A stretch of 64,000 nucleotides of DNA. Source: Methylobacterium sp. GTDB taxonomy: Bacteria > Pseudomonadota > Alphaproteobacteria > Rhizobiales > Beijerinckiaceae. Shown piece by piece: positions 53,192 to 64,000 of the stretch. Position 1 is the stretch's first letter. Each line of letters opens with the position of its first letter. Position numbers and translations under genes: made by a program. The notes beneath the pieces were generated by a model, which was not told the DNA's origin, ran no database searches, and saw nothing but the letters and a program-made list of their open reading frames with translations. The DNA lies in contig NZ_JAIETD010000070.1 in the NCBI RefSeq assembly GCF_019745455.1, positions 5,517-69,516 of the forward strand, given 5' to 3'.

Positions 53192-53287
53192 CGGTGGCTT
53201 GCTCCTTCACAGATCGCGAACCCGGTACAGTCTGGTGCGCGTCATGCCAAGGTGGAAGGAACGGCAAGCCGTCGAGGTTGCGACGCT

Positions 53288-53485
53288 TTAGTGCAGTTGC
53301 CCGTCAAACATCGACCAGGGATTTGGCGCGTAGGGCCCGGGTGCTTCCTCGGTGGACCGCATCGTAGCCGCCGGCTTCTCGCGCTCGACCACTTCGAGTG
53401 CGTGAATGACGTGCGCGTGAGCGTCAGCATCCTCGGCGACGACGGCCCGTAGGGCAGTGACCAGTTGTTCATGAACGTCGGACAT
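53288..53485 (-). CDS. Small hypothetical protein
   Basis: GGAG RBS before MSDVHEQ, amphipathic helix. Confidence 0.45.
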   Translation of the reverse strand: MSDVHEQLVTALRAVVAEDADAHAHVIHALEVVEREKPAATMRSTEEAPGPYAPNPWSMFDGQLH

Positions 53486-53514
53486 GAAGTCACGCTCCAA
53501 AGTGAGAGCTCGGT

Positions 53515-53889
53515 TTATGAGCGCAATATGTAGATTACCGATGTGCGCTTCCTCACCTGAATATCCGCTGATGATCTTGCCGGTTTAGCGTTCAGATTGA
53601 TGACGCGTCGAAGAAGAGCGTCGTTTCGGATCATGCTGCGGATCCTGATAAAACGATTTTTTCCGTCACCCGGGGAGCCCCTTCTGATGACCGATGCTCG
53701 GAAAGCCGGAGACCTGACGCGAACCAGATCCTGAGCCGAGCTCTGTGCATCCCTGCACAGGTCATGCACATCGATGCGCCGTTTGTCGGTCAGGTATGGC
53801 GGTACGTTTGACGCAACCCGTGGTGTCTGCGTGCACTTCGGGACCGGAAGGATCAGGTGGGGCGAGCGCGTATGCGCAGCATCGACCAT
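53515..53889 (-). CDS. Hypothetical protein (doubtful)
   Basis: Open frame only, no recognisable motif. Confidence 0.25.
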   Translation of the reverse strand: MVDAAHTRSPHLILPVPKCTQTPRVASNVPPYLTDKRRIDVHDLCRDAQSSAQDLVRVRSPAFRASVIRRGSPGDGKNRFIRIRSMIRNDALLRRVINLNAKPARSSADIQVRKRTSVIYILRS

Positions 53890-54137
53890 TGCATCGACGT
53901 CTGCAGGCTAAGGGGTGAAAGCGGGGGCTACGCCGAACAGCGACATTCCGCTGACAGAGCCCTGGGTAATCGGGCGCCGGGGTCGATCGGACTACGTCGG
54001 TAGACGAGGCTATTGGCTTTCCGACGTGCCCGGTTCAGGCGTGCCAACTTCGTGACGGAAAGGCAGCGTTCGTCTTGGGCCGCTTGGCCTGCGATGCAAT
54101 TCCTGCCCGTTGCAAATCGCTAAAAGGTTCCGCCGTC

Positions 54138-54320
54138 ATGGAATTGAGCCCGACAGAAGACCCAATTGCCATCCGTGAGATGGCGGCGGTCTTCTCGGCC
54201 GAGACCATCGCTCCCCAGGCCATTGGCTGAGATGAAAACAAGCATTTCCCTGTCGAAACGCTGAGAGACGCCGCCTACGGTATGGCAGGAATTTACGTGA
54301 CGTTGGAAGAATCCGGTGTT
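54138..54320 (+). pseudogene. N-terminal remnant of an acyl-CoA dehydrogenase (isobutyryl-CoA dehydrogenase-like)
   Basis: Manual translation gives MELSPTEDPIAIREMAAVFSAETIAPQAIG*DENKHFPVETLRDAAYGMAGIYV. TGA at 54228 sits where the family has Trp. Confidence 0.7.
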
Positions 54321-54820
54321 CAGGCGACCCGCTTCGTGTCCTGCTTGCCTGTGAACTCGGTGGCAATCGCCTCGCGGATCAAAGCCAGCCATCCTTCGGC
54401 GATCCTCGCCCGCTCTTCTGCCGCCTTGACCCGCTCGTCGGCCGCCTTCAGCAGAGCTTCGCTGCGCGCCTGTATATCGACAGCGCGTGCGTCGGTGGCA
54501 CGGACGCGTTCGGCGGCCGCCTTGATGTCTTCCCGCGCGCGATCAAGCAGGTTCTGGACGTGCAACTCCTGTTCTTGAGACTGGGCCTCGACCCGGCGAA
54601 CATGATTGGCCATGTCGCGGATGCGATCGATGAGATCAGCCCATTCCTGATCGGGAGATGTCCGCGTCGGCGGGCCATCAGCGCCAGGATGATCGAAGGA
54701 GCCGATCAAGCGCAGGACGTTGGTGATGCTGCCATCCGCGGCTTTGCTTTTGGCGGGGTCAATTGGCTCAGATGTCTGCACTGACGGACGCTCCCAGCGA
54801 ACCTGTGTGGCTGAACTCAT
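54320..54820 (-). CDS. Coiled-coil hypothetical protein
   Basis: Long heptad-rich helix (EWADLIDRIR...ERARIAEGWLALIREAI), GGAGG RBS upstream. Confidence 0.75.
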   Translation of the reverse strand: MSSATQVRWERPSVQTSEPIDPAKSKAADGSITNVLRLIGSFDHPGADGPPTRTSPDQEWADLIDRIRDMANHVRRVEAQSQEQELHVQNLLDRAREDIKAAAERVRATDARAVDIQARSEALLKAADERVKAAEERARIAEGWLALIREAIATEFTGKQDTKRVA

Positions 54821-54888
54821 GGAGGTTCTGACCTCTGGACCCTACGGAAGGCGAGTGGCGCTCCTTACCAAACTGTTAAGCAAATTGA

Positions 54889-54904
54889 TTAACGACACGT
54901 TAAC
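54889..54904 (+). promoter_or_regulatory. CtrA binding site
   Basis: TTAA-CGACACG-TTAAC, an exact TTAA-N7-TTAAC consensus. Overlaps an EcfG-like GGAAA-N16-CGTT (54891-54915, minus). Confidence 0.7.
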
Positions 54905-55106
54905 GGCGGTTTTCCAAAGTCGATTGTCGCTCGTTGTTGCCGCTGACCGTTAGCGTGACCCTGTGGACCGACCGTCGGGACGCCGAGTTTAACGAGTGAG
55001 AGCCTGACTGCTGACCCGTTGTCAGAGAGGACCATCAACCCTCCACACGTGGGAGGTTTATTGCACCGATGAAGCAATAATGATGCAGCCAGCACACCAT
55101 GATGCC

Positions 55107-55132
55107 TGAACCAATTTTGCACGCCTGACGTT
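55107..55132 (+). promoter_or_regulatory. sigma-EcfG promoter-like site
   Basis: TGAAC-N17-CGTT, 41 nt upstream of the lipoprotein start. Confidence 0.55.
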
Positions 55133-55173
55133 ACTCACCGCCCGTCAGAGGCATTCAATGATGAGGAACGCTC

Positions 55174-55362
55174 ATGCGCATTCGCACTCTATTGCCGCTC
55201 GTTGGCCTGCTCGCACTTGCCGCTTGCAAGGACGAAAAGAAGGCTGAGGTACCCAATCCGACAAACCCGCCGGCAGCGAGCGCGGCAGCGCCGACGACGC
55301 CTGCGGCAACTCCAACCACGCCCGTCACGCCTGCTCCCACGACTAAGCCACCTGCTCAGTGA
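55174..55362 (+). CDS. Small Pro/Thr/Ala-rich lipoprotein
   Basis: GAGGA RBS, lipobox LAAC (Cys18), low-complexity PTT/PAA tail. Confidence 0.8.
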   Translation: MRIRTLLPLVGLLALAACKDEKKAEVPNPTNPPAASAAAPTTPAATPTTPVTPAPTTKPPAQ

Positions 55363-55389
55363 TCCAAAGCAAACTTGCGATACGCAGAA

Positions 55390-55424
55390 GAAGGCCCCGG
55401 AGATTCAACACCGCCGGGGCCTTC
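55390..55424. terminator. Hairpin between convergent genes
   Basis: GAAGGCCCCGG-N13-CCGGGGCCTTC. Confidence 0.55.
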
Positions 55425-55497
55425 AAAAGATATGTCATACCGCGGAAGGACGGCCAGACCTACTGCCTGTTCCTCTGCCCTGGCGTATACAAACCCC

Positions 55498-55935
55498 TTA
55501 CTGACTCGTGCTCGAGCCTGTGCGCGTCGTCGACTTCACCGGCTTCGAGCCTGGCTCATGCGACATGGTCTTCGTGCGCGACTCGACGCTTTCGCCGTCG
55601 CGCACCTTTGTCTTGGTTTGCGACTTAGAGAAAATGCCCTGATCATTCGCCATGGCCTTAGACTGGCCATTCAGACCCTGACCCGTTTCGTTGACCTTGG
55701 ACCGGCTCTTGGCGTTCTCCCCCGCCGCACTGCCGCCGGTAGCCAAGGAGGAGCCAGTGCCGCTTGCGCCAGTGGAAGTGCCTCCGGTTCCTAAGGTCGT
55801 GGCGGAGGTTCCTCCAGCCGCCGCCGAGCCGCCAGTGCCACCTGTTGCGCTACCGCCGCTCTGAGCCAATGCGGCCGCAGGGCCAAAGAGGAGGAAGGCC
55901 CCGAGGGTCAAGCGCGTGATTGTTGTTGATGTCAT
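55498..55935 (-). CDS. Secreted Gly/Ser/Thr-rich protein
   Basis: GAGGAG RBS, signal peptide ending ALA-Q, TGG-type repeats, then Lys/Ser/Thr-rich C-terminal half. Confidence 0.8.
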   Translation of the reverse strand: MTSTTITRLTLGAFLLFGPAAALAQSGGSATGGTGGSAAAGGTSATTLGTGGTSTGASGTGSSLATGGSAAGENAKSRSKVNETGQGLNGQSKAMANDQGIFSKSQTKTKVRDGESVESRTKTMSHEPGSKPVKSTTRTGSSTSQ

Positions 55936-55945
55936 GGTCGTCTCC

Positions 55946-56335
55946 TCACTTGTTGTCCTTGGGCATGGTGACGACGCAATCGCCATTGCTGGTGGTCGTC
56001 ATCGTCGTGCCATTCGACGACGAACTCACGCCTGAACTCGATGATGAGCTGCTGGACTGTCCGTTGCCGGAGTTCGCGGTGACGGAGGGGCCGCCTGTGG
56101 TCGAGCTTTGAACACCCCCAGGTCCGGCCGTGACCGAACTCGACAAGGTGCCCGTGTTGTTGGCTCCATCCGAGCGAACGACCCGGCAGGGCTTCCCGTT
56201 AGGGCCCGTGGTGACGGTCGTGTTGCCTGAAACCCCACCTTGGCCGGTGGTGACGGTGCTCGTTTGAGCTTGGCTCAGGGCGCAACTCGCAGCCAGCAAT
56301 GTCGCAGTGATAAGGGGAAGAGCAAGGCGAAGCAT
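55946..56335 (-). CDS. Secreted Gly/Ser/Thr-rich protein with a Cys pair
   Basis: GAGGAG RBS, signal peptide ending SQA-Q, VTTG repeats, KPCRVV and GDCVV in the mature chain. Confidence 0.8.
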   Translation of the reverse strand: MLRLALPLITATLLAASCALSQAQTSTVTTGQGGVSGNTTVTTGPNGKPCRVVRSDGANNTGTLSSSVTAGPGGVQSSTTGGPSVTANSGNGQSSSSSSSSGVSSSSNGTTMTTTSNGDCVVTMPKDNK

Positions 56336-56411
56336 GGTGCATCTCCTCTGGAAGCGGGTTGGGCGCGGCTTTTCAGAACCGCGCCCGAGGATCAGCTAAG
56401 CCGCGAAAGGC

Positions 56412-56867
56412 TCACTTCTTGTCTTTGTTATGCCCCGGCGCGTTCTCGGAGTTGCCGGGACCGCTCTTGTCCCTACCCGGAGCGCTGTCGGACGCTCCTG
56501 CCGACGAGCCGCCGGTACCGACCGAAGAACCGCTCTTACCCGCGCCGGCCGAAGAGCCACCGGTGCCGACCGTCGAGGACGAACCCGAACCGCTGCCTCC
56601 GCCCGCCGAGGATCCACCGGTGCCGACCGTCGAAGAGCTGGTGCCGCCCCCCGCAGAAGAGCCGCCGGTGCCAACCGTCGAGGATGAGCTGGATCCCGAC
56701 CCGCTGCCTGCCGAGGAGCCGCCCGTGCCCACGGTCGAGTTGCTCGTGCCGCCTCCTGCCGACGAACCGCCGGTGCCGACCGTGGAGCTGGACTGTGCGA
56801 GTGCGAGCGCCGCGCCACCAACGACGAACGTGGTAGCGAGAGCGGCGATACGAAATTGCTTCAGCAT
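56412..56867 (-). CDS. Secreted protein with six S(T/S)VGTGGSSAG repeats
   Basis: GGAG RBS, signal peptide ending ALA-Q, six repeats, C-terminal PGNSENAPGHNK tail. Confidence 0.85.
   Translation of the reverse strand: MLKQFRIAALATTFVVGGAALALAQSSSTVGTGGSSAGGGTSNSTVGTGGSSAGSGSGSSSSSTVGTGGSSAGGGTSSSTVGTGGSSAGGGSGSGSSSTVGTGGSSAGAGKSGSSVGTGGSSAGASDSAPGRDKSGPGNSENAPGHNKDKK
56500..56795. repeat. Intragenic tandem repeat, six units of ~45-57 nt
   Basis: Core GAGCCGCCGGTGCCGACCGTCGAG recurs six times with synonymous variation. Confidence 0.85.
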
Positions 56868-56905
56868 GCGATTTCTCCAAGCATTTTGAACAATGCAGAG
56901 GCAAG

Positions 56906-56931
56906 AACGCCTTCCTGGAAGCAACCGTTCC
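56906..56931 (-). promoter_or_regulatory. sigma-EcfG promoter
   Basis: AACG-N17-GTTCC on plus = GGAAC-N17-CGTT, 39 nt upstream of the repeat-protein start. Confidence 0.75.
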
Positions 56932-57136
56932 AATAACTTGCTCGTAAGTTTAGAATAACCTCAGGTGAAGGCGGCATTCATCAGGAGTTCAGCGCAATCA
57001 TCGCCTTTCTTCTGTACAATAACTCGCAGGTAATAGCCCGCACTCATAAAGAGCGCGCGCTTTAGCTTGGCCGAGGCGTCCTAAAGATCCCGCATAGGGA
57101 TCGCTCGATCGAGCAATCGGAGTCTGGGGCGGCCAA

Positions 57137-57162
57137 AACGTCGCGCAGTCGAAAACGGTTCC
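57137..57162 (-). promoter_or_regulatory. Second sigma-EcfG promoter
   Basis: AACG-N17-GTTCC on plus, same direction, 231 nt further upstream. Confidence 0.55.
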
Positions 57163-57310
57163 AGGGTAGCGAGGGGATCATGAGATCTCTCATGGATGAC
57201 CGAAGCCCCGCAGGCAGCCAACAGAATTCTTAGTAGCTCCACCTTAGCTTCAGCCGCTCGGTATCTGGAAAAACTGAGGGAAGGTAGTTAAAATTTTCAG
57301 TTCTTACTTA

Positions 57311-57357
57311 TTAATTGGTTTGATTAGTAGTGAATAGTACTGACAAACATCAATTAA
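57311..57357. repeat. AT-rich imperfect inverted repeat
   Basis: TTAATTG-GTTTG-ATTAGTAG...TAGTACTGA-CAAAC-AT-CAATTAA. Confidence 0.55.
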
Positions 57358-57787
57358 AAACGAGTACCTTTAAGATATTGATAGAGCGATCATGCCGATG
57401 ATTGTTGTGACACTTGTCAACGACATCACCCTGGCAAATGTCGATTCAGCTGCCGAGAGGGATTCGCAGTGACATGAACCCGTTCGGAACAGGCTTAGCC
57501 CTCAACGTCTCGCGATGCGGTGGCGGTCAGCCGAGGTCGAATATCAATCCGCAGAAATCAGGCACCTCAAAGTAGAACATAAACCAACATTCGTCAAGTA
57601 TTCAGCCACGCGCTAAATCGGCACAGTTTAGAGATGGAAACAGAACGTCAAGCCTCTTTGAGCTATAAGCATATTTGCAGTACGAGGTCGTTGTCCTAAA
57701 TTGACGACCACGTTGGCACCTGGGTCGATTTTCGCATAGCGGGCGGTTTCCTACCCGCCAGAATAGTACACCTGAGACCATGCCGGA

Positions 57788-58837
57788 TCAGCTGACGACG
57801 ATTCGCTCATCAAGCCTCCAATCCACCGTCTCGACCGTCTCGTCAATCTCGGCGTTCGGTGCACCAAGCTGGTGCGAGATCAGTTTGATCAGCAGGTCAA
57901 CACGTTCGATGAAGGGGGCGCCGTTCGCCACCGCGCGGGCGGCCGATGACGGCTTGAGAAGGCTCTCAGCCGCCTTGGCATATTTCTCGAACGGCACTTG
58001 ATCCTCGGGGGCGGCTCCCAGTTGCCGAGCAATGGCATCAACGTGCTCGTAGATGGCACGCGAGCGCGCCAGATCGCCGTGAACCGCATCGCGAATTGAC
58101 TGAATCTCATCTGGCCTGATGCAGCGATAGTTCCCGGTCAGCAGCATCGACCACTTTGCTAGCGGGACAAACAGCGACTCGGACACCTTGAGCTTGACCG
58201 GCACGTCCTGACCGTCGAGCCGAACAGCACTGATATCCGATTCCAGATCCCGGAGAAGCTGATTGTGGATCTTGTCTGCGAACGGCGCGGCCTTGAAATT
58301 CGTCGGCAGTCCGACATGCAGCACGTTCGCACCTTCGTCCGGCGGGCGGAACGCTTGAGGATCGGGCGAGCAGAGCGACATTAAACCAGGCTCGAACCGG
58401 TCCCAGACGCTGGCATTGGTGTAGGCACCCTCCAAGTCCATTGCCGCGAGCGCAGGGATCCGCTTGAGGTACGGGAGAGGTGGCATGTTCATCAGGGAGA
58501 GACAGGGTAGCTTTGCCGCAGCAACCTTGATCATCAGCACGCGGATCGTGTGATTAGTGTATTGGGGCTCCTGCATGGCGAGAACGACCAAGTCATATCG
58601 CGTAACGTCGATATGCTCGGGCGAAGATGCGTCTACAGTTCCGGGAAGCTCACTTGACCGTATGGTTCTGTGGGCGGCTTCGTCCCGCAACTTAATGCGA
58701 ACTGCTGTCCCCTCTCGGTTGATCAGATCCGCAGTCTTCCTTCGGCAGACGAGGGTCACGTTATGACCCGCCATCAGCAACTTGGTCGAGAGCAGCGAGC
58801 CGTACGAGGCTCCCAAGATCAGGATGTTGCGTTGCAT
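57788..58837 (-). CDS. Rossmann-fold protein distantly related to ketopantoate reductase (PanE/ApbA)
   Basis: N-terminal ILILGASYGSLL...GHNVTLVCR, LVVLAMQEPQY, MNMPP. Confidence 0.7.
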   Translation of the reverse strand: MQRNILILGASYGSLLSTKLLMAGHNVTLVCRRKTADLINREGTAVRIKLRDEAAHRTIRSSELPGTVDASSPEHIDVTRYDLVVLAMQEPQYTNHTIRVLMIKVAAAKLPCLSLMNMPPLPYLKRIPALAAMDLEGAYTNASVWDRFEPGLMSLCSPDPQAFRPPDEGANVLHVGLPTNFKAAPFADKIHNQLLRDLESDISAVRLDGQDVPVKLKVSESLFVPLAKWSMLLTGNYRCIRPDEIQSIRDAVHGDLARSRAIYEHVDAIARQLGAAPEDQVPFEKYAKAAESLLKPSSAARAVANGAPFIERVDLLIKLISHQLGAPNAEIDETVETVDWRLDERIVVS

Positions 58838-59417
58838 GCTTGCTCTCCCCGGAAGCGCAGCGATAGGTGATGGAATGACGGCGAGCGACGGTCATCTCGA
58901 CCACGCATCAACGCTTCGATCCAGTCGCTTGTTGGACGAGGACACATCATAAGATGAACCTTGGGCCGGGCCAAAGCAGGTCGATAAAGACACTGGACGC
59001 GTCCATCCTCGTGCGGAACGAGCCCGGAGCGGGCTCAACCGGGCCGATGGTGGCACGACACGCTGAGGTCGCCGCGGCGCGTGAGTACAGCGGCCGTACA
59101 GTGGACGATAAGTGACGCTGCCCTTTGTGGGTCGTTCCGCAACAGATACGTCCTGACGAACGTCGCGAAAGGAGAAACTCTGATCGGCGTCTCACGCGAC
59201 GTGAAGGCTGTTCCGAGACGAGACCGTCTTGGAAAAAATCCAACGGGGCGTGTCTTGCCCAGGAACGCGGCACTTACTTTACAGGGAAAAATAAGAGCGC
59301 CTCAGTGATGAACTGACTTGAACTCTGATAGGTCGTTATGCATATGTGTGTTCACGAGCAGCACAGCTGCCACATGTTCTTGCGATCCACTTTTTAATTT
59401 ATCAAAGGAGTGACATC

Positions 59418-59507
59418 ATAGCTTGGACTGCACCGGTTGTTCTCGAAGTTTGTGTTGGCATGGAAGTCACCAGCTACGACTCGGCTGAGATCGACACCTT
59501 TAACTAA
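59418..59507 (+). CDS. pqqA: PQQ precursor peptide PqqA, orphan copy with ATA in place of the start ATG
   Basis: Manual translation gives (I/M)AWTAPVVLEVCVGMEVTSYDSAEIDTFN* (29 aa), with the E-X3-Y motif intact. AAAGGAG lies 7 nt upstream and a terminator follows. Confidence 0.85.
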   Translation: MAWTAPVVLEVCVGMEVTSYDSAEIDTFN

Positions 59508-59547
59508 GTCTTGCGAAAAAACTTAAAGACTTGTCGGCACTGACATG

Positions 59548-59572
59548 AAAAGCCGCCCTAGGGCGGCTTTTT
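59548..59572. terminator. Bidirectional intrinsic terminator after pqqA
   Basis: AAAAGCCGCCC-TA-GGGCGGCTTTTT. Confidence 0.85.
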
Positions 59573-59598
59573 GCTGTCTAAAAGAATAGCAAACGCCG

Positions 59599-59856
59599 TT
59601 AATCATCTTCGACTTGGTGTTGGTCCAAGCCACGAAGCGATACTGCGAGGCTGCAGGAAAGTCCCTCGCAGCAACATGACCTTGCCGATGGCGACAAAAT
59701 TTTAGTTGGTGCAGCAAACCGATACGCTACGTCTTTCCCGCGATCTCCAATTCCATCTCCCCCTTGTCCTTGATCGCCATAGTCCATCAGGACGTAACCA
59801 CGCTCTGCTAGCGCCGGATAAAGACTGTGGCGGTGCTTACTGGATGATTGCTCCAT
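59599..59856 (-). CDS. Hypothetical protein or remnant (doubtful)
   Basis: Open frame converging on the bidirectional terminator. No family recognised. Confidence 0.25.
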   Translation of the reverse strand: MEQSSSKHRHSLYPALAERGYVLMDYGDQGQGGDGIGDRGKDVAYRFAAPTKILSPSARSCCCEGLSCSLAVSLRGLDQHQVEDD

Positions 59857-60205
59857 GACAAGCGGCGTCAGACCCGGCTAGGCGACAGCCGAAACGACCA
59901 TCGATGGCACCCAAGACATGTGGGGGCGGGAACGCCGACGGCACCGACTACATCTTCGGAGGAAACATCGGCGCCGTCGGCACTGAGTCGGCCTAAGAAG
60001 CAAGCCGACCAGTTCACCGATAACGGCGTTCGTAAGCAGCCAGTTTCGACATCACCAAGAATAGTTTCGCTCAACCGCATTCAAGACGCTAAACTGTCAA
60101 GCTTGGGATGGTAGCCGAATTTCCTCTATACAGACGCTGGTTGCGGAACCGATAGACCGTTTCTGTAATTACTCCTGCCAACGAAAAAATATGGAGGAGT
60201 ACGCT

Positions 60206-60568
60206 ATGAAGCTTTCAATGATCGCCGGTGCTGCCATTCTCGCGATGACAGCCGGAACTTCGATTGCAGCACCGTGCAACACGGCATCCACCAACGACAA
60301 GAGCGCCAAAGTCGATCCGGGCAGCAAGAATCTCGCAGGAGGGCAACAGCCTGCATCCCCCGGCACCGTAGGTGCGATGAACAACGTCGGCGCGAATCAG
60401 GGCCTCGGCGAAAAGCAAGGAGCCGCTACCATCGCCAGCAAGGGGAACGAGGACCCGGCCAGTAAGAACTTGGCCGGTGGCCAGCAACCTGCTTCGCCCG
60501 GGACGGTCGGCGCCATGAACAATGCCGGCTCGAACCAAGCAGTCGGTAAGAAGGGTGACGATTGCTGA
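60206..60568 (+). CDS. Secreted protein with a duplicated ~29-aa Gly/Gln/Asn-rich repeat and terminal cysteines
   Basis: GGAGGAG RBS, signal peptide, two copies of DPxSKNLAGGQQPASPGTVGAMNNxGxNQ, Cys near the mature N-terminus and as the last residue. Confidence 0.85.
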   Translation: MKLSMIAGAAILAMTAGTSIAAPCNTASTNDKSAKVDPGSKNLAGGQQPASPGTVGAMNNVGANQGLGEKQGAATIASKGNEDPASKNLAGGQQPASPGTVGAMNNAGSNQAVGKKGDDC

Positions 60569-60594
60569 TCCGCTGAGCCGTCGCGATCATTACG

Positions 60595-60628
60595 ATGCCC
60601 GTCCGGTGTATGCCGGACGGGCATTTTT
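60595..60628 (+). terminator. Intrinsic terminator
   Basis: ATGCCCGTCCGG-TGTATG-CCGGACGGGCAT-TTTT. Confidence 0.8.
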
Positions 60629-60703
60629 ATGTCAGCGAAAGAGCTATGATGACAGGCACGCCGTAGCGACGCACTAAAGCTGACATCATCCTCACACGCG
60701 AGT

Positions 60704-61873
60704 TCAGCGCATTTTGGCGACGATCCAGTCGATGATTGCGGCGGCGACCACGCTGTTGTTCGCTTCCAGCATCATCATGTGCCCGTTGCCTTTGATGCCG
60801 TGCTCGGCGAGGGCAAGACGATCCGGCTTCGCCCCAGCTTGAGCCAGAAAGGCAGCGGTGCAGTCATCCATCGTTGCCCGGAATGATGCTTCGCCGGTAA
60901 CAATGACCGCCGGCACCTTCGCAAGGTTCGGAAGTTGCCGGGCAGGCTCAGCCTGCAACCAACACCGGATCTGATCCGGCCGCGTTGGCTGGTCGGCCTG
61001 CACGACCGTCAGTTCGGCTGGGGATCCGACCGGAGGCTCAAAGCGCAGCGGCACGCGGGTGATGCCGTAGGGCCGGGCTCGAGCTTCACCAACGCGCTCG
61101 TACCACTCTGCCCCGCCCTTAAACTTGATGTCGTAGAAGGTCGGCCCGTTCGGCTCGACAGCGACGTGTGCCTTCACGAGGTCGGGCCGCTGATCGGAGA
61201 CCGCCCACCCAAAAACCCCGGCCTGCGAGTGCGTGAGAACAACCGATGGACCCACCTTCTCCAGCAAGGCGATCAGCGCCGGGTTGACCAGTTCCTCGCT
61301 CTTCAGCGCACTGGCGATATAGGGCACCTGCGAGAGGTAGAACTGGTCGAAGGCGACATTGCCCTTCACGCCGGGACCACCGGGCCACTGCGTGTGCCGT
61401 TTGGCTTGTGGGAAGAGGTCGAACTTCTCCTGCCCGGTGAAGATGCTTTCGAGGTCGCGCGCGCCGAGCCGAGCGTAGGGGCCATAGACATCTGGGTTGT
61501 CACCTGAGCGACCCCGTCCGACCTGATCGACGACGTAGACGGCAAAGCCACGCTCGACGAAGTGACTCACCCAGCCGGGCCGGCCATCGGGTGTGCCGAG
61601 GAAGTTGATGCCAGTCTGCGCGGTCCCATGGACCATAACCACGGGGAAGGGCTGCTTCACCTCCGTCGGGGCATGGTACTGGACGAACATGTGACCTGCG
61701 GCGATCTCCTTGCCGCCAACGGTCACGTACTGCCCTCCAACGAAGAAATATCCCTCGCGCTGGCCGGGCTTGAAGACGGCGGGCACATCGGGCGTGGAGG
61801 GTTTTGATTCCGCCTGCGCCGTCACTGTGAGCCCGAACAGGGCACAAGCCCCAAGCAGCGCCATCCTGAGCAT
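60704..61873 (-). CDS. Secreted alpha/beta hydrolase
   Basis: Signal peptide, VMVHGTAQTG, TPDGRPGW, THSQAG nucleophile elbow, GNGHMMMLE. Confidence 0.88.
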   Translation of the reverse strand: MLRMALLGACALFGLTVTAQAESKPSTPDVPAVFKPGQREGYFFVGGQYVTVGGKEIAAGHMFVQYHAPTEVKQPFPVVMVHGTAQTGINFLGTPDGRPGWVSHFVERGFAVYVVDQVGRGRSGDNPDVYGPYARLGARDLESIFTGQEKFDLFPQAKRHTQWPGGPGVKGNVAFDQFYLSQVPYIASALKSEELVNPALIALLEKVGPSVVLTHSQAGVFGWAVSDQRPDLVKAHVAVEPNGPTFYDIKFKGGAEWYERVGEARARPYGITRVPLRFEPPVGSPAELTVVQADQPTRPDQIRCWLQAEPARQLPNLAKVPAVIVTGEASFRATMDDCTAAFLAQAGAKPDRLALAEHGIKGNGHMMMLEANNSVVAAAIIDWIVAKMR

Positions 61874-62456
61874 CGCCAGCCTCCCGTGGACGTCTGGTGC
61901 GTCCTGGAGGAACTATCGACGCTAAACCTGCGGCATGTCCATGCACTAACAGGACGGGGGTCTCAGCGTGCCAATGCCTTTTCGAGCGTGCGCAGCCCAT
62001 CGCCCATTGCCTCCCACAGGGTGATGATCGAAGGTCTTCGCGATACCGTGCCTGCCTCGGCCGATCTCGAATGCACGGCCGCGGCCTTGTCGAGGGAGCC
62101 CGTAACATCGTGCGCCACGGCCCTGCCCGCCGGCCAAGCGGGTGAGGAACAGGCAGCAGCGATGGCCGACCCGTTAGCCAGGAAGCCGCCGACGACCGGA
62201 TTAGGGCGCGTCGCCCCCGAGCGGCTCGTCGCGGCGGCACGATAACCGTCCTTTTCAGGTTCAGCGAACCTGCGAGCAGAATGTAGGTTTCCCCACTGCG
62301 GTCACGACTTCTCTGAGGGGGAGGTTCAAGCGATAGGCGCCCCAAACTCTATTGAGGGCCCGGCGCTCATGAGCTTAAGCGCGCCAATGGTCCAAGACAT
62401 ATGCATACTCGCTTTCCGCGAGCGCGATACGTTGGCCCCTCCGGGAAGGGGCACGC

Positions 62457-62855
62457 ATGAGCATCAAGTCCGTGACAGACATCGATCGGGCCGTCGGCGA
62501 GCGCATCGCGGCGCTGCGCAGGGCCAAGGGCCTGTCGCAGGCCATGCTTGGCATTGCGATCGGCGTCTCGTTCCAGCAGGTGGCGAAATATGAGAAGGGA
62601 CTGAACCGCATCAGCGGCAGCCGTCTGCAGGAGGCAGCCCAGGCGCTCGACGTGCCGGTATTCTCGTTCTTCGGCGAGGTCGCGTCCGAGGTCACGGTTG
62701 AGGACGACGTCTTCGAATCACTCGCTGAGGCCGGCGCCGTAGAGCTGCTCGGGGCCTATGCGGCGATCAAGGATGCTCAACTCCGGGGCGACGTACTCGC
62801 CATGATCTGCATCGCCGCTCGCATCGGAACTCGGCCTGTCGCAGGGAAGGGGTGA
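62457..62855 (+). CDS. XRE-family HTH transcriptional regulator
   Basis: GERIAALRRAKGLSQ..LG..IGVSFQQVAKYEKGLNRIS. Confidence 0.9.
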   Translation: MSIKSVTDIDRAVGERIAALRRAKGLSQAMLGIAIGVSFQQVAKYEKGLNRISGSRLQEAAQALDVPVFSFFGEVASEVTVEDDVFESLAEAGAVELLGAYAAIKDAQLRGDVLAMICIAARIGTRPVAGKG

Positions 62856-63157
62856 TGCTCGCCAACCGTCGGTGTTGGTTGTGCCAGTTGGCTTTCGAAG
62901 ACATGGCGCGAAAGTTGGAGCGTAAGGGCTGACGCCCCGTCTCTGACCTCGCGCTGACCTAATCTCGCAAGTCCCGTTCGTCTTCGGCCGGAGTCAGCGA
63001 AGCTGCACGACGGTTCGAATCAAGCGTGTGCTGAAGCTCATGGCACCGTCCTTCGGCGACATGCTGAGGCTTATTAAGTTGCGCATGTGCGCTTTACCAG
63101 TCGGTGCGGGAGGCGGTATCGGATCGCGTGACAAGTCAGTGAGAGGACGACGAGCCG

Positions 63158-63982
63158 ATGCGAGGATGGTTCAAGCGCTCCGTGCTTACCAATGGGCAAC
63201 GTGCGGATTGGGACCGGGACGGCTTCCTTGCCTTGAGAGGTTTCTTCGATCCGGACACCGTCGCTGCCGTGAACGCCGAAGTTGCGGGATTACTCCAGAA
63301 CCGGACACGCTATCCAAATGTCAGCGTCGACATTCTAACCGGCCCTAACGTCGGGAAGCGTATGAAGCTAGTGGACGCGCCGGACGATGCGTTCAACGGG
63401 CCAGTCAAGATCAACGATCTGTTTTTAGACTCCGACATCGTGCGCAGCTGCAACCTCGACGAGCGCCTCGCCGACGTCTTGGATGCCCTTCTTGATGGGG
63501 AGGCGATGATCTGCAACTCGCTTAACTTCCTCTACGGGAGCACGCAGAGCGCCCATTATGACAGCTGGTTCATGGCGCCACCGGTCCAGAACAAGATGGT
63601 GGCAACCTCGATCTGCTTGGACGTAAACTCAGACGACAACGGGCCGGTTTTCCTTTATCCCGGCACCCACAAGATCCCGCCTTACATCTTTCCTCACGGG
63701 AAGATCGCCAAGCTCGACGCCGCGTTGGCCCCTGCGCTGCAGTACGTCGAGCAAACGTCTCGCGATATCACACCCGTAAAGTTTTATGGCCAGCCCGGCG
63801 ACGTGCTGATCTGGCACGGTCAAGTTTTGCACGGCGGCTCGCCGATCGAAGATCCGAGCAAAACCCGGCGCAGTCTTGTCACACACTATTGGCGCGCGAA
63901 GGACTACAAGGCAGCCCATCGCTTAAAGATCACCCGCAATGGTCACATAATGAAGCGCGCGCATCAGGAAGCAGAGCATTGA
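63158..63982 (+). CDS. Phytanoyl-CoA dioxygenase (PhyH) family Fe(II)/2OG enzyme
   Basis: WDRDGFL, HYD (HxD), GPVFLYPGTHK, GDVLIWHGQVLHGG and RRSL. Confidence 0.88.
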   Translation: MRGWFKRSVLTNGQRADWDRDGFLALRGFFDPDTVAAVNAEVAGLLQNRTRYPNVSVDILTGPNVGKRMKLVDAPDDAFNGPVKINDLFLDSDIVRSCNLDERLADVLDALLDGEAMICNSLNFLYGSTQSAHYDSWFMAPPVQNKMVATSICLDVNSDDNGPVFLYPGTHKIPPYIFPHGKIAKLDAALAPALQYVEQTSRDITPVKFYGQPGDVLIWHGQVLHGGSPIEDPSKTRRSLVTHYWRAKDYKAAHRLKITRNGHIMKRAHQEAEH

Positions 63983-64000
63983 TTTATCGAACGCACTGAT

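Follow-up and report, generated by a model that had tools for sequence, protein, structure and literature searches.

Orphan copies of pqqA, the gene for the pyrroloquinoline quinone (PQQ) precursor peptide, are already well known in methylotrophs. M. extorquens AM1 carries two of them, pqqA2 and pqqA3, both responsive to the supply of lanthanides (PMC11317620), and Methylovorus sp. MP688 is credited with five pqqA genes (Ge et al. 2015, as cited in PMC11317620). The placement of pqqA apart from pqqB-E has also been described for genomes of Methylobacterium (PMC4161386). Here we describe a further copy, found in a draft genome of Methylobacterium sp. (5.41 Mb in 184 contigs, 65.8% G+C) within a stretch of 64,000 nucleotides that we refer to as the window. 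Like pqqA2 and pqqA3 of AM1 and the MP688 copies, it stands alone, has a ribosome-binding site and a terminator of its own and is located far from pqqB-E. It also resembles the PqqA of the AM1 operon (pqqABC/DE), with which it shares a length of 29 residues, a near-identical sequence and the Glu-x3-Tyr pair, but it lies outside an operon and its first codon is ATA rather than ATG. The same codon separates it from other orphan genes of methylotrophs: the 371 other copies that we surveyed in the genus start with ATG, whereas the window copy has ATA and is without the leader of its orthologues. In kind it is ordinary, a spare gene of a known family whose start codon is defective.

A second comparison is with near-cognate start codons that have shown regulatory roles, such as the AUU of infC in E. 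coli and the GTC of sigR in Streptomyces. As in the window gene, a near-cognate codon there follows a good Shine-Dalgarno sequence, and the ATA would likewise be expected to face discrimination by IF3. The infC and sigR starts are conserved across species, however, whereas the window ATA is known from one genome. In E. coli reporters, AUA behind a Shine-Dalgarno sequence initiates at about 1-2% of the AUG level (bioRxiv 10.1101/063800).

Identity and layout of the window pqqA

The reading frame at this locus (Table 1) translates as (I/M)AWTAPVVLEVCVGMEVTSYDSAEIDTFN and is, on profile and nucleotide similarity, a true PqqA gene. It scored 31.6 bits against TIGR02107 (cut-off 20) and 29.6 bits against PF08042 (cut-off 21.1), and because these scores are joined by 91% nucleotide identity to the pqqA of another species, the match lies far beyond chance. 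The Glu-x-x-x-Tyr pair of PqqA comprises the two residues that are cross-linked to make PQQ, and in the window copy it is intact, with Glu16 (59463-59465) and Tyr20 (59475-59477) in the motif GMEVTSY. None of the canonical starts (ATG, GTG or TTG) stands at the family N-terminus, where the window copy has ATA instead. The G+C content of the coding sequence is 48.9%, compared with 65.8% for the genome.

Table 1. Features of the window pqqA locus (coordinates are positions in the 64,000-nt window).
Feature	Position	Strand	Details
Upstream intergenic DNA	58838-59404	+	Found in this genome only; rich in A+T close to the gene
In-frame GTG	59346-59348	+	24 codons upstream of the ATA; start of a 53-aa ORF, 59346-59507
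Shine-Dalgarno sequence AAGGAG	59405-59410	+	7-nt spacer (59411-59417), then ATA
pqqA coding frame	59418-59507	+	29 sense codons and TAA (59505-59507); identified by TIGR02107, PF08042 and codon comparison with orthologues
ATA at the start-codon position	59418-59420	+	G>A at 59420 relative to all relatives
Internal in-frame ATG (Met15)	59460-59462	+	Within the pqqA frame
First 3' hairpin	59505-59533	+	AAGUCUU ... AAGACUU, from folding; overlaps the stop codon
Intrinsic terminator	59542-59578	+	Core stem GCCGCCC-TA-GGGCGGC (59552-59567), T run TTTTT (59568-59572), A run upstream

The initial annotation had described a 29-codon frame behind AAAGGAG-N7-ATA, followed by a terminator and without a nearby in-frame ATG. 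All of these elements were confirmed at the positions in Table 1, and no in-frame ATG is present upstream of the frame. Compared with the orthologues described below, the Shine-Dalgarno sequence has one additional base, and its spacing equals that of their AGGAG-N7-ATG. On the 3' side, the orthologues also have a hairpin immediately after the stop codon, although of a different sequence. The 81-nt region 3' of the window frame folds at -29.8 kcal/mol (z = -3.9 compared with shuffles), and, given the A run upstream of its stem, the terminator could act in both directions. A simple terminator scanner left the 59552-59567 hairpin unflagged, though the fold is clear. Just 3' of the terminator there is an open frame on the minus strand (59785-59871) with 62% identity over 29 residues to an ORF on another contig of the genome (C37, 31516-31602); neither has a Pfam match, and the frame may be a gene fragment.

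The description of the gene as invisible among the listed open reading frames stood only in part. It would be hidden if short ORFs were filtered out, but a 53-aa ORF that begins at an in-frame GTG and ends at the pqqA stop codon is listed. This GTG had been missed in the first reading, as had the absence of the ~130-nt leader found in orthologues. Translation from the GTG would add 24 residues to the N-terminus of PqqA, and the PQQ enzymes might still process the extended peptide; the frame is open from position 59346, and the exact product occurs in public annotation. On direct reading of the sequence, however, no Shine-Dalgarno sequence precedes the GTG, and none of the 371 other copies carries anything equivalent to the extension. 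The latter is low in G+C and not coding-like, and the likeness to orthologues begins at the AAGGAG, which lies inside the supposed extension. We regard a functional 53-aa product as highly improbable, the least credible of the readings considered here.

Both forms of the peptide are on public record. NCBI holds the exact 29-aa peptide with Met at position 1, and NCBI and UniRef hold the exact 53-aa GTG-started product, in each case from a single contig. Presumably one annotation took the GTG ORF and another the 29-codon gene with its ATA start. The Met-started record is a choice of annotation and not evidence of translation. The corresponding 90% protein cluster contains only the window's 29-aa and 53-aa forms together with one peptide from genome G106, which belongs to another species. 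Exact-pattern scans of genome_contigs and metagenome_contigs found no other carriers of the window sequence, and a search for contigs encoding the 53-aa form gave no record.

pqq genes elsewhere in the genome

We found four PF08042 matches above the cut-off in the genome, three of which start with ATG. One of these three, on contig C79, is directly followed by pqqB, a fused pqqC/D and pqqE, with scores of 394.7 bits for TIGR02108, 421 bits for TIGR02111, 80.2 bits for TIGR03859 (fused to PqqC) and 590.5 bits for TIGR02109. In a tblastn search of the whole genome, PqqB, PqqC/D and PqqE were found on C79 only, and none of them is present on the contig of the window (C22). The remaining two ATG copies form a tandem pair at the very end of contig C31 (57873-58126), which ends 3 nt past the stop codon of the second gene. 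The array may run past this contig end, so four is to be read as a minimum copy number. In genomes of the genus with a match, the number of pqqA copies is mostly three or four, with some at five or six.

These results bear out the earlier proposal that the window gene is a stand-alone extra precursor copy with no pqqB-E genes in its vicinity, as it is the fourth PF08042 match of the genome (one on C79, two on C31 and one in the window) and its family scores exceed both cut-offs. Because three ATG copies and the sole pqqB-E set are located elsewhere in the genome, the window pqqA is, by gene content, a redundant fourth copy. A recent gene conversion by the other pqqA copies of this genome was also considered and rejected, since these are only 80-82% identical to the window copy, compared with 91% for the copy in G106.

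The start codon across the genus

To compare start codons, we derived search patterns from the conserved N-terminal half of pqqA and applied them to 146 species genomes from the genus. The start-free pattern gave 372 matches, of which 371 were recovered by the pattern requiring ATG; the pattern requiring ATA, ATC or ATT had one match, the window copy. Reversed patterns, used as a control, gave 0 matches in all scans, and the 26 of the 146 genomes without a match to the start-free pattern are uninformative on the start codon. The first codon is also ATG in every aligned pqqA copy from the loci of 19 relatives.

The closest copy, with 91% nucleotide identity, is that of G106. It reads ACATC-ATG-GCT-TGG-ACT-GCA-CCG-GTT-GTT-CTG... 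where the window copy reads ACATC-ATA-GCT-TGG-ACT-GCA-CCG-GTT-GTT-CTC.... Apart from the start codon itself, the context is the same in G106 and four more orthologues, each of which has ATG (ACATC-ATG-GCTTGGACTGC). Because the G106 copy has ATG where the window has ATA, the change is, from this alignment, a single G>A transition at 59420. Among the 146 genomes the non-canonical start is present only here.

Orthologous cassettes in related genomes

An orthologous orphan cassette is found in G004, G005, G010, G026 and G106, where the peptide reads MAWTAPVV(Q/L)EVCVGMEVTSYESAEIDTFN and is named in NCBI as 'pyrroloquinoline quinone precursor peptide PqqA [Methylobacterium]'. Between these cassettes and the window copy, nucleotide identity is 87-91% over the stretch that begins at the Shine-Dalgarno sequence and ends with the stop codon; the Shine-Dalgarno spacing is the same, and the terminator hairpins are related. 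Their layout consists of a promoter and structured leader, AGGAG, 7 nt, ATG, 28 codons, a stop codon, hairpins and a terminator. Apart from ATA in place of ATG, the window copy differs from them in having Asp rather than Glu at residue 21, in its flanking genes, in the missing middle 3' hairpin and in the lack of a detectable ~130-nt promoter/leader. Two further hairpins precede the terminator in the orthologues.

The ~130 nt upstream of the gene are strongly conserved in the five orthologues and contain a promoter-like pair and a two-hairpin leader. These conserved regions lie at L039:4262-4500 (-), at L014:1380-1512 (+) and around position 1504 of L010, L011 and L012. In transcripts of orphan pqqA genes, the region may serve as a leader, so far undescribed, with a regulatory or stabilising role; no Rfam family covers it or the window pqqA. 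When the upstream 187 nt of the window (-200 to -14) were aligned locally with the five orthologues, the scores were 16-18, the same as for dinucleotide shuffles, whereas the orthologues' upstream regions scored 179 against each other. The folding of the leader region gave a similar contrast, with z = +0.45 (no unusual structure) for the window and z = -3.35 for G106. Patchy MAFFT matches had hinted at residual upstream homology, but they were overruled by the local-alignment comparison with shuffles. Downstream, only the terminator hairpin is alike, scoring 33-41 against a shuffle maximum of 26. Because the upstream scores equal those of shuffles and only the terminator is significant downstream, the likeness between the window and its orthologues is limited to the stretch from Shine-Dalgarno to stop, plus the terminator.

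The orthologues' promoter and leader are thus, by alignment score, without a detectable counterpart in the window, and unrelated AT-rich DNA stands in their place. The 568-bp upstream intergenic region has no match at E<=1e-20 in the 146 genus genomes. Neither a sigma-70-like site on the plus strand upstream of the gene nor an EcfG-type GGAAC-N15-18-CGTT motif near it was found, although this unrelated DNA may hold a working promoter.

Divergence of the window copy

With the orthologues of G004, G005, G010 and G026 as the outgroup for parsimony, the window and G106 copies have in common the derived states GCA, CCG, GTT and Leu9 (CTN), because of which we take them, on codon comparison, to be sister copies. 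Six changes fall on the window branch, namely the start codon, four synonymous changes (CTG>CTC, GTG>GTT, GTC>GTT and TTC>TTT) and one replacement (Glu21>Asp), compared with a single synonymous change on the G106 branch. The Asp21 of the window copy is also found in one of the genome's own ATG pqqA copies. The synonymous changes are mostly toward T-ending codons, in a genome of 65.8% G+C. Together, the excess of changes and the drift to T-ending codons suggest relaxed constraint, with counts (6 versus 1, and two of the six non-silent) too small for significance. From the mostly silent pattern, purifying selection acted on the peptide over most of the window branch, which fits a start-codon lesion of recent date.

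This divergence also bears on whether the ATA is real. A base-calling or assembly error would make the gene an ordinary fourth paralogue with a true ATG, and the sequence is indeed a draft of 184 contigs in which a single base separates ATA from the universal ATG. No second strain with which to compare the codon turned up in the scans described above. However, the flanks of the gene are unique, so that a collapse of paralogues cannot explain the codon, and the ATA is found in none of the genome's other copies. The five other private substitutions and the replaced upstream region also indicate high real divergence at this locus, and single-base substitution errors in a short-read consensus are in general far rarer than the divergence seen here. 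We give an error of this kind a slim chance.

Genomic surroundings

The window pqqA is located in a region that looks like an accessory one (53200-64000), judging from its composition. G+C is 66-71% between 50.0 and 53.5 kb and 46-67%, mostly in the lower part of this range, from ~53.2 kb to the window end, with minima at 57.0-57.7 kb and 59.25-59.75 kb. The window contains no tRNA gene. Homologues of the neighbouring genes, at ~80% identity, occur dispersed through the genomes of other species, and the arrangement is shared by no genome. When 3 kb around each of the best pqqA matches from 19 relatives were compared with the window, nothing was shared beyond the stretch from Shine-Dalgarno to stop. 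Matches in the plasmid collection were limited to the pqqA core carried by Methylocystis plasmids. At 56493-56787 the window contains internal direct repeats of ~75% identity, offset by ~105 nt, in agreement with the repeat-protein genes noted in the first reading; one stretch of these resembles contig C93.

Only in G022 does a homologue of the window's 349-aa neighbour lie near an orphan pqqA, at a distance of ~4 kb, and the DNA between the two matches several small contigs of the genome studied here. G022 has a second pqqA ~1.6 kb from the intact copy (L040:8040-8249 on the minus strand; G022:C1, ~1152040-1152250), in which the ATG and the N-terminal half are kept and unrelated residues follow GMEVTSYES, for a total of 41 aa. 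Its surroundings also match several small contigs of the studied genome. This second gene is an orphan copy that has decayed, its C-terminus scrambled, and together with the G022 layout it shows that spare pqqA copies are subject to rearrangement and decay in the genus.

Status and significance of the window copy

We believe that the window gene is most likely a spare pqqA that is being lost, an incipient pseudogene and not a case of new regulation. Specifically, we propose at a probability of roughly 0.65 that a recent G>A lesion struck the start codon of a redundant orphan pqqA under relaxed constraint, which would now be translated weakly at most. In this scenario, the transition at 59420 would have turned ATG into ATA in a one-gene cassette whose ancestral promoter and leader were lost and replaced by unrelated AT-rich DNA. 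The initiator tRNA would still read AUA behind the good Shine-Dalgarno sequence, but at a low rate, and the copy would supply very little PqqA because AUA initiates at only ~1-2% of the AUG level in E. coli. Selection on it would be relaxed, because the three ATG copies would meet the need, and the remainder of the frame would be intact only through the youth of the lesion. Of the three options in the initial annotation, namely a start throttled by its non-canonical codon, a gene freshly inactivated by ATG>ATA and a sequencing error, the second fits best, given an ATA in one of 372 copies, an ATG in the sister copy and an intact frame. An evolved translational throttle found no support, since the ATA is shared by no relative.

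There are features of the locus that also fit a gene in use, namely the perfect frame, the Glu-x3-Tyr pair, the four synonymous changes against one conservative replacement, the retained Shine-Dalgarno sequence and the intact terminator. Selection might then be keeping the gene as a weak or conditional source of PqqA, with use of the AUA start rising when IF3 proofreading relaxes. The AAGGAG with its optimal 7-nt spacing is one base stronger than in the orthologues, AUA initiation is measurable in E. coli (bioRxiv 10.1101/063800), non-canonical starts under IF3 control exist (PMC5472188), and orphan pqqA genes are differentially regulated in M. extorquens AM1 (PMC11317620). However, this ATA is a singleton (one of the 372 copies from 146 genomes) that the sister copy does not share, and because of this there is no sign that it has been conserved. 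The leader that is conserved in the orthologues is missing as well, and a contributor of 1-2% would be physiologically negligible beside three ATG copies. We therefore consider a functional ATA unlikely. The stricter version, in which the AUA is both used and kept by selection and the spare PqqA is translated only when IF3 proofreading relaxes, for example under stress or in slow growth, has in our view a slim chance. If true, the selected AUA would let a gene in a low-G+C accessory region supplement the cell's PQQ precursor under certain conditions. Near-cognate starts that control the supply of a cofactor precursor are rare in bacteria, and the ATA would count among them if it were shown to be in use and under regulation, but the present data give no such indication.

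On our preferred reading of a start-codon lesion in a spare gene, the significance of the window copy is small beyond annotation. It illustrates how a gene with a defective start can receive an ordinary protein record from an annotation pipeline, and until tested the window copy should not be included in counts of functional pqqA genes or in PQQ engineering in this strain. For the family, it is a clean example of early decay, in which the start codon and the upstream control have gone first while the 29 codons are still perfect.
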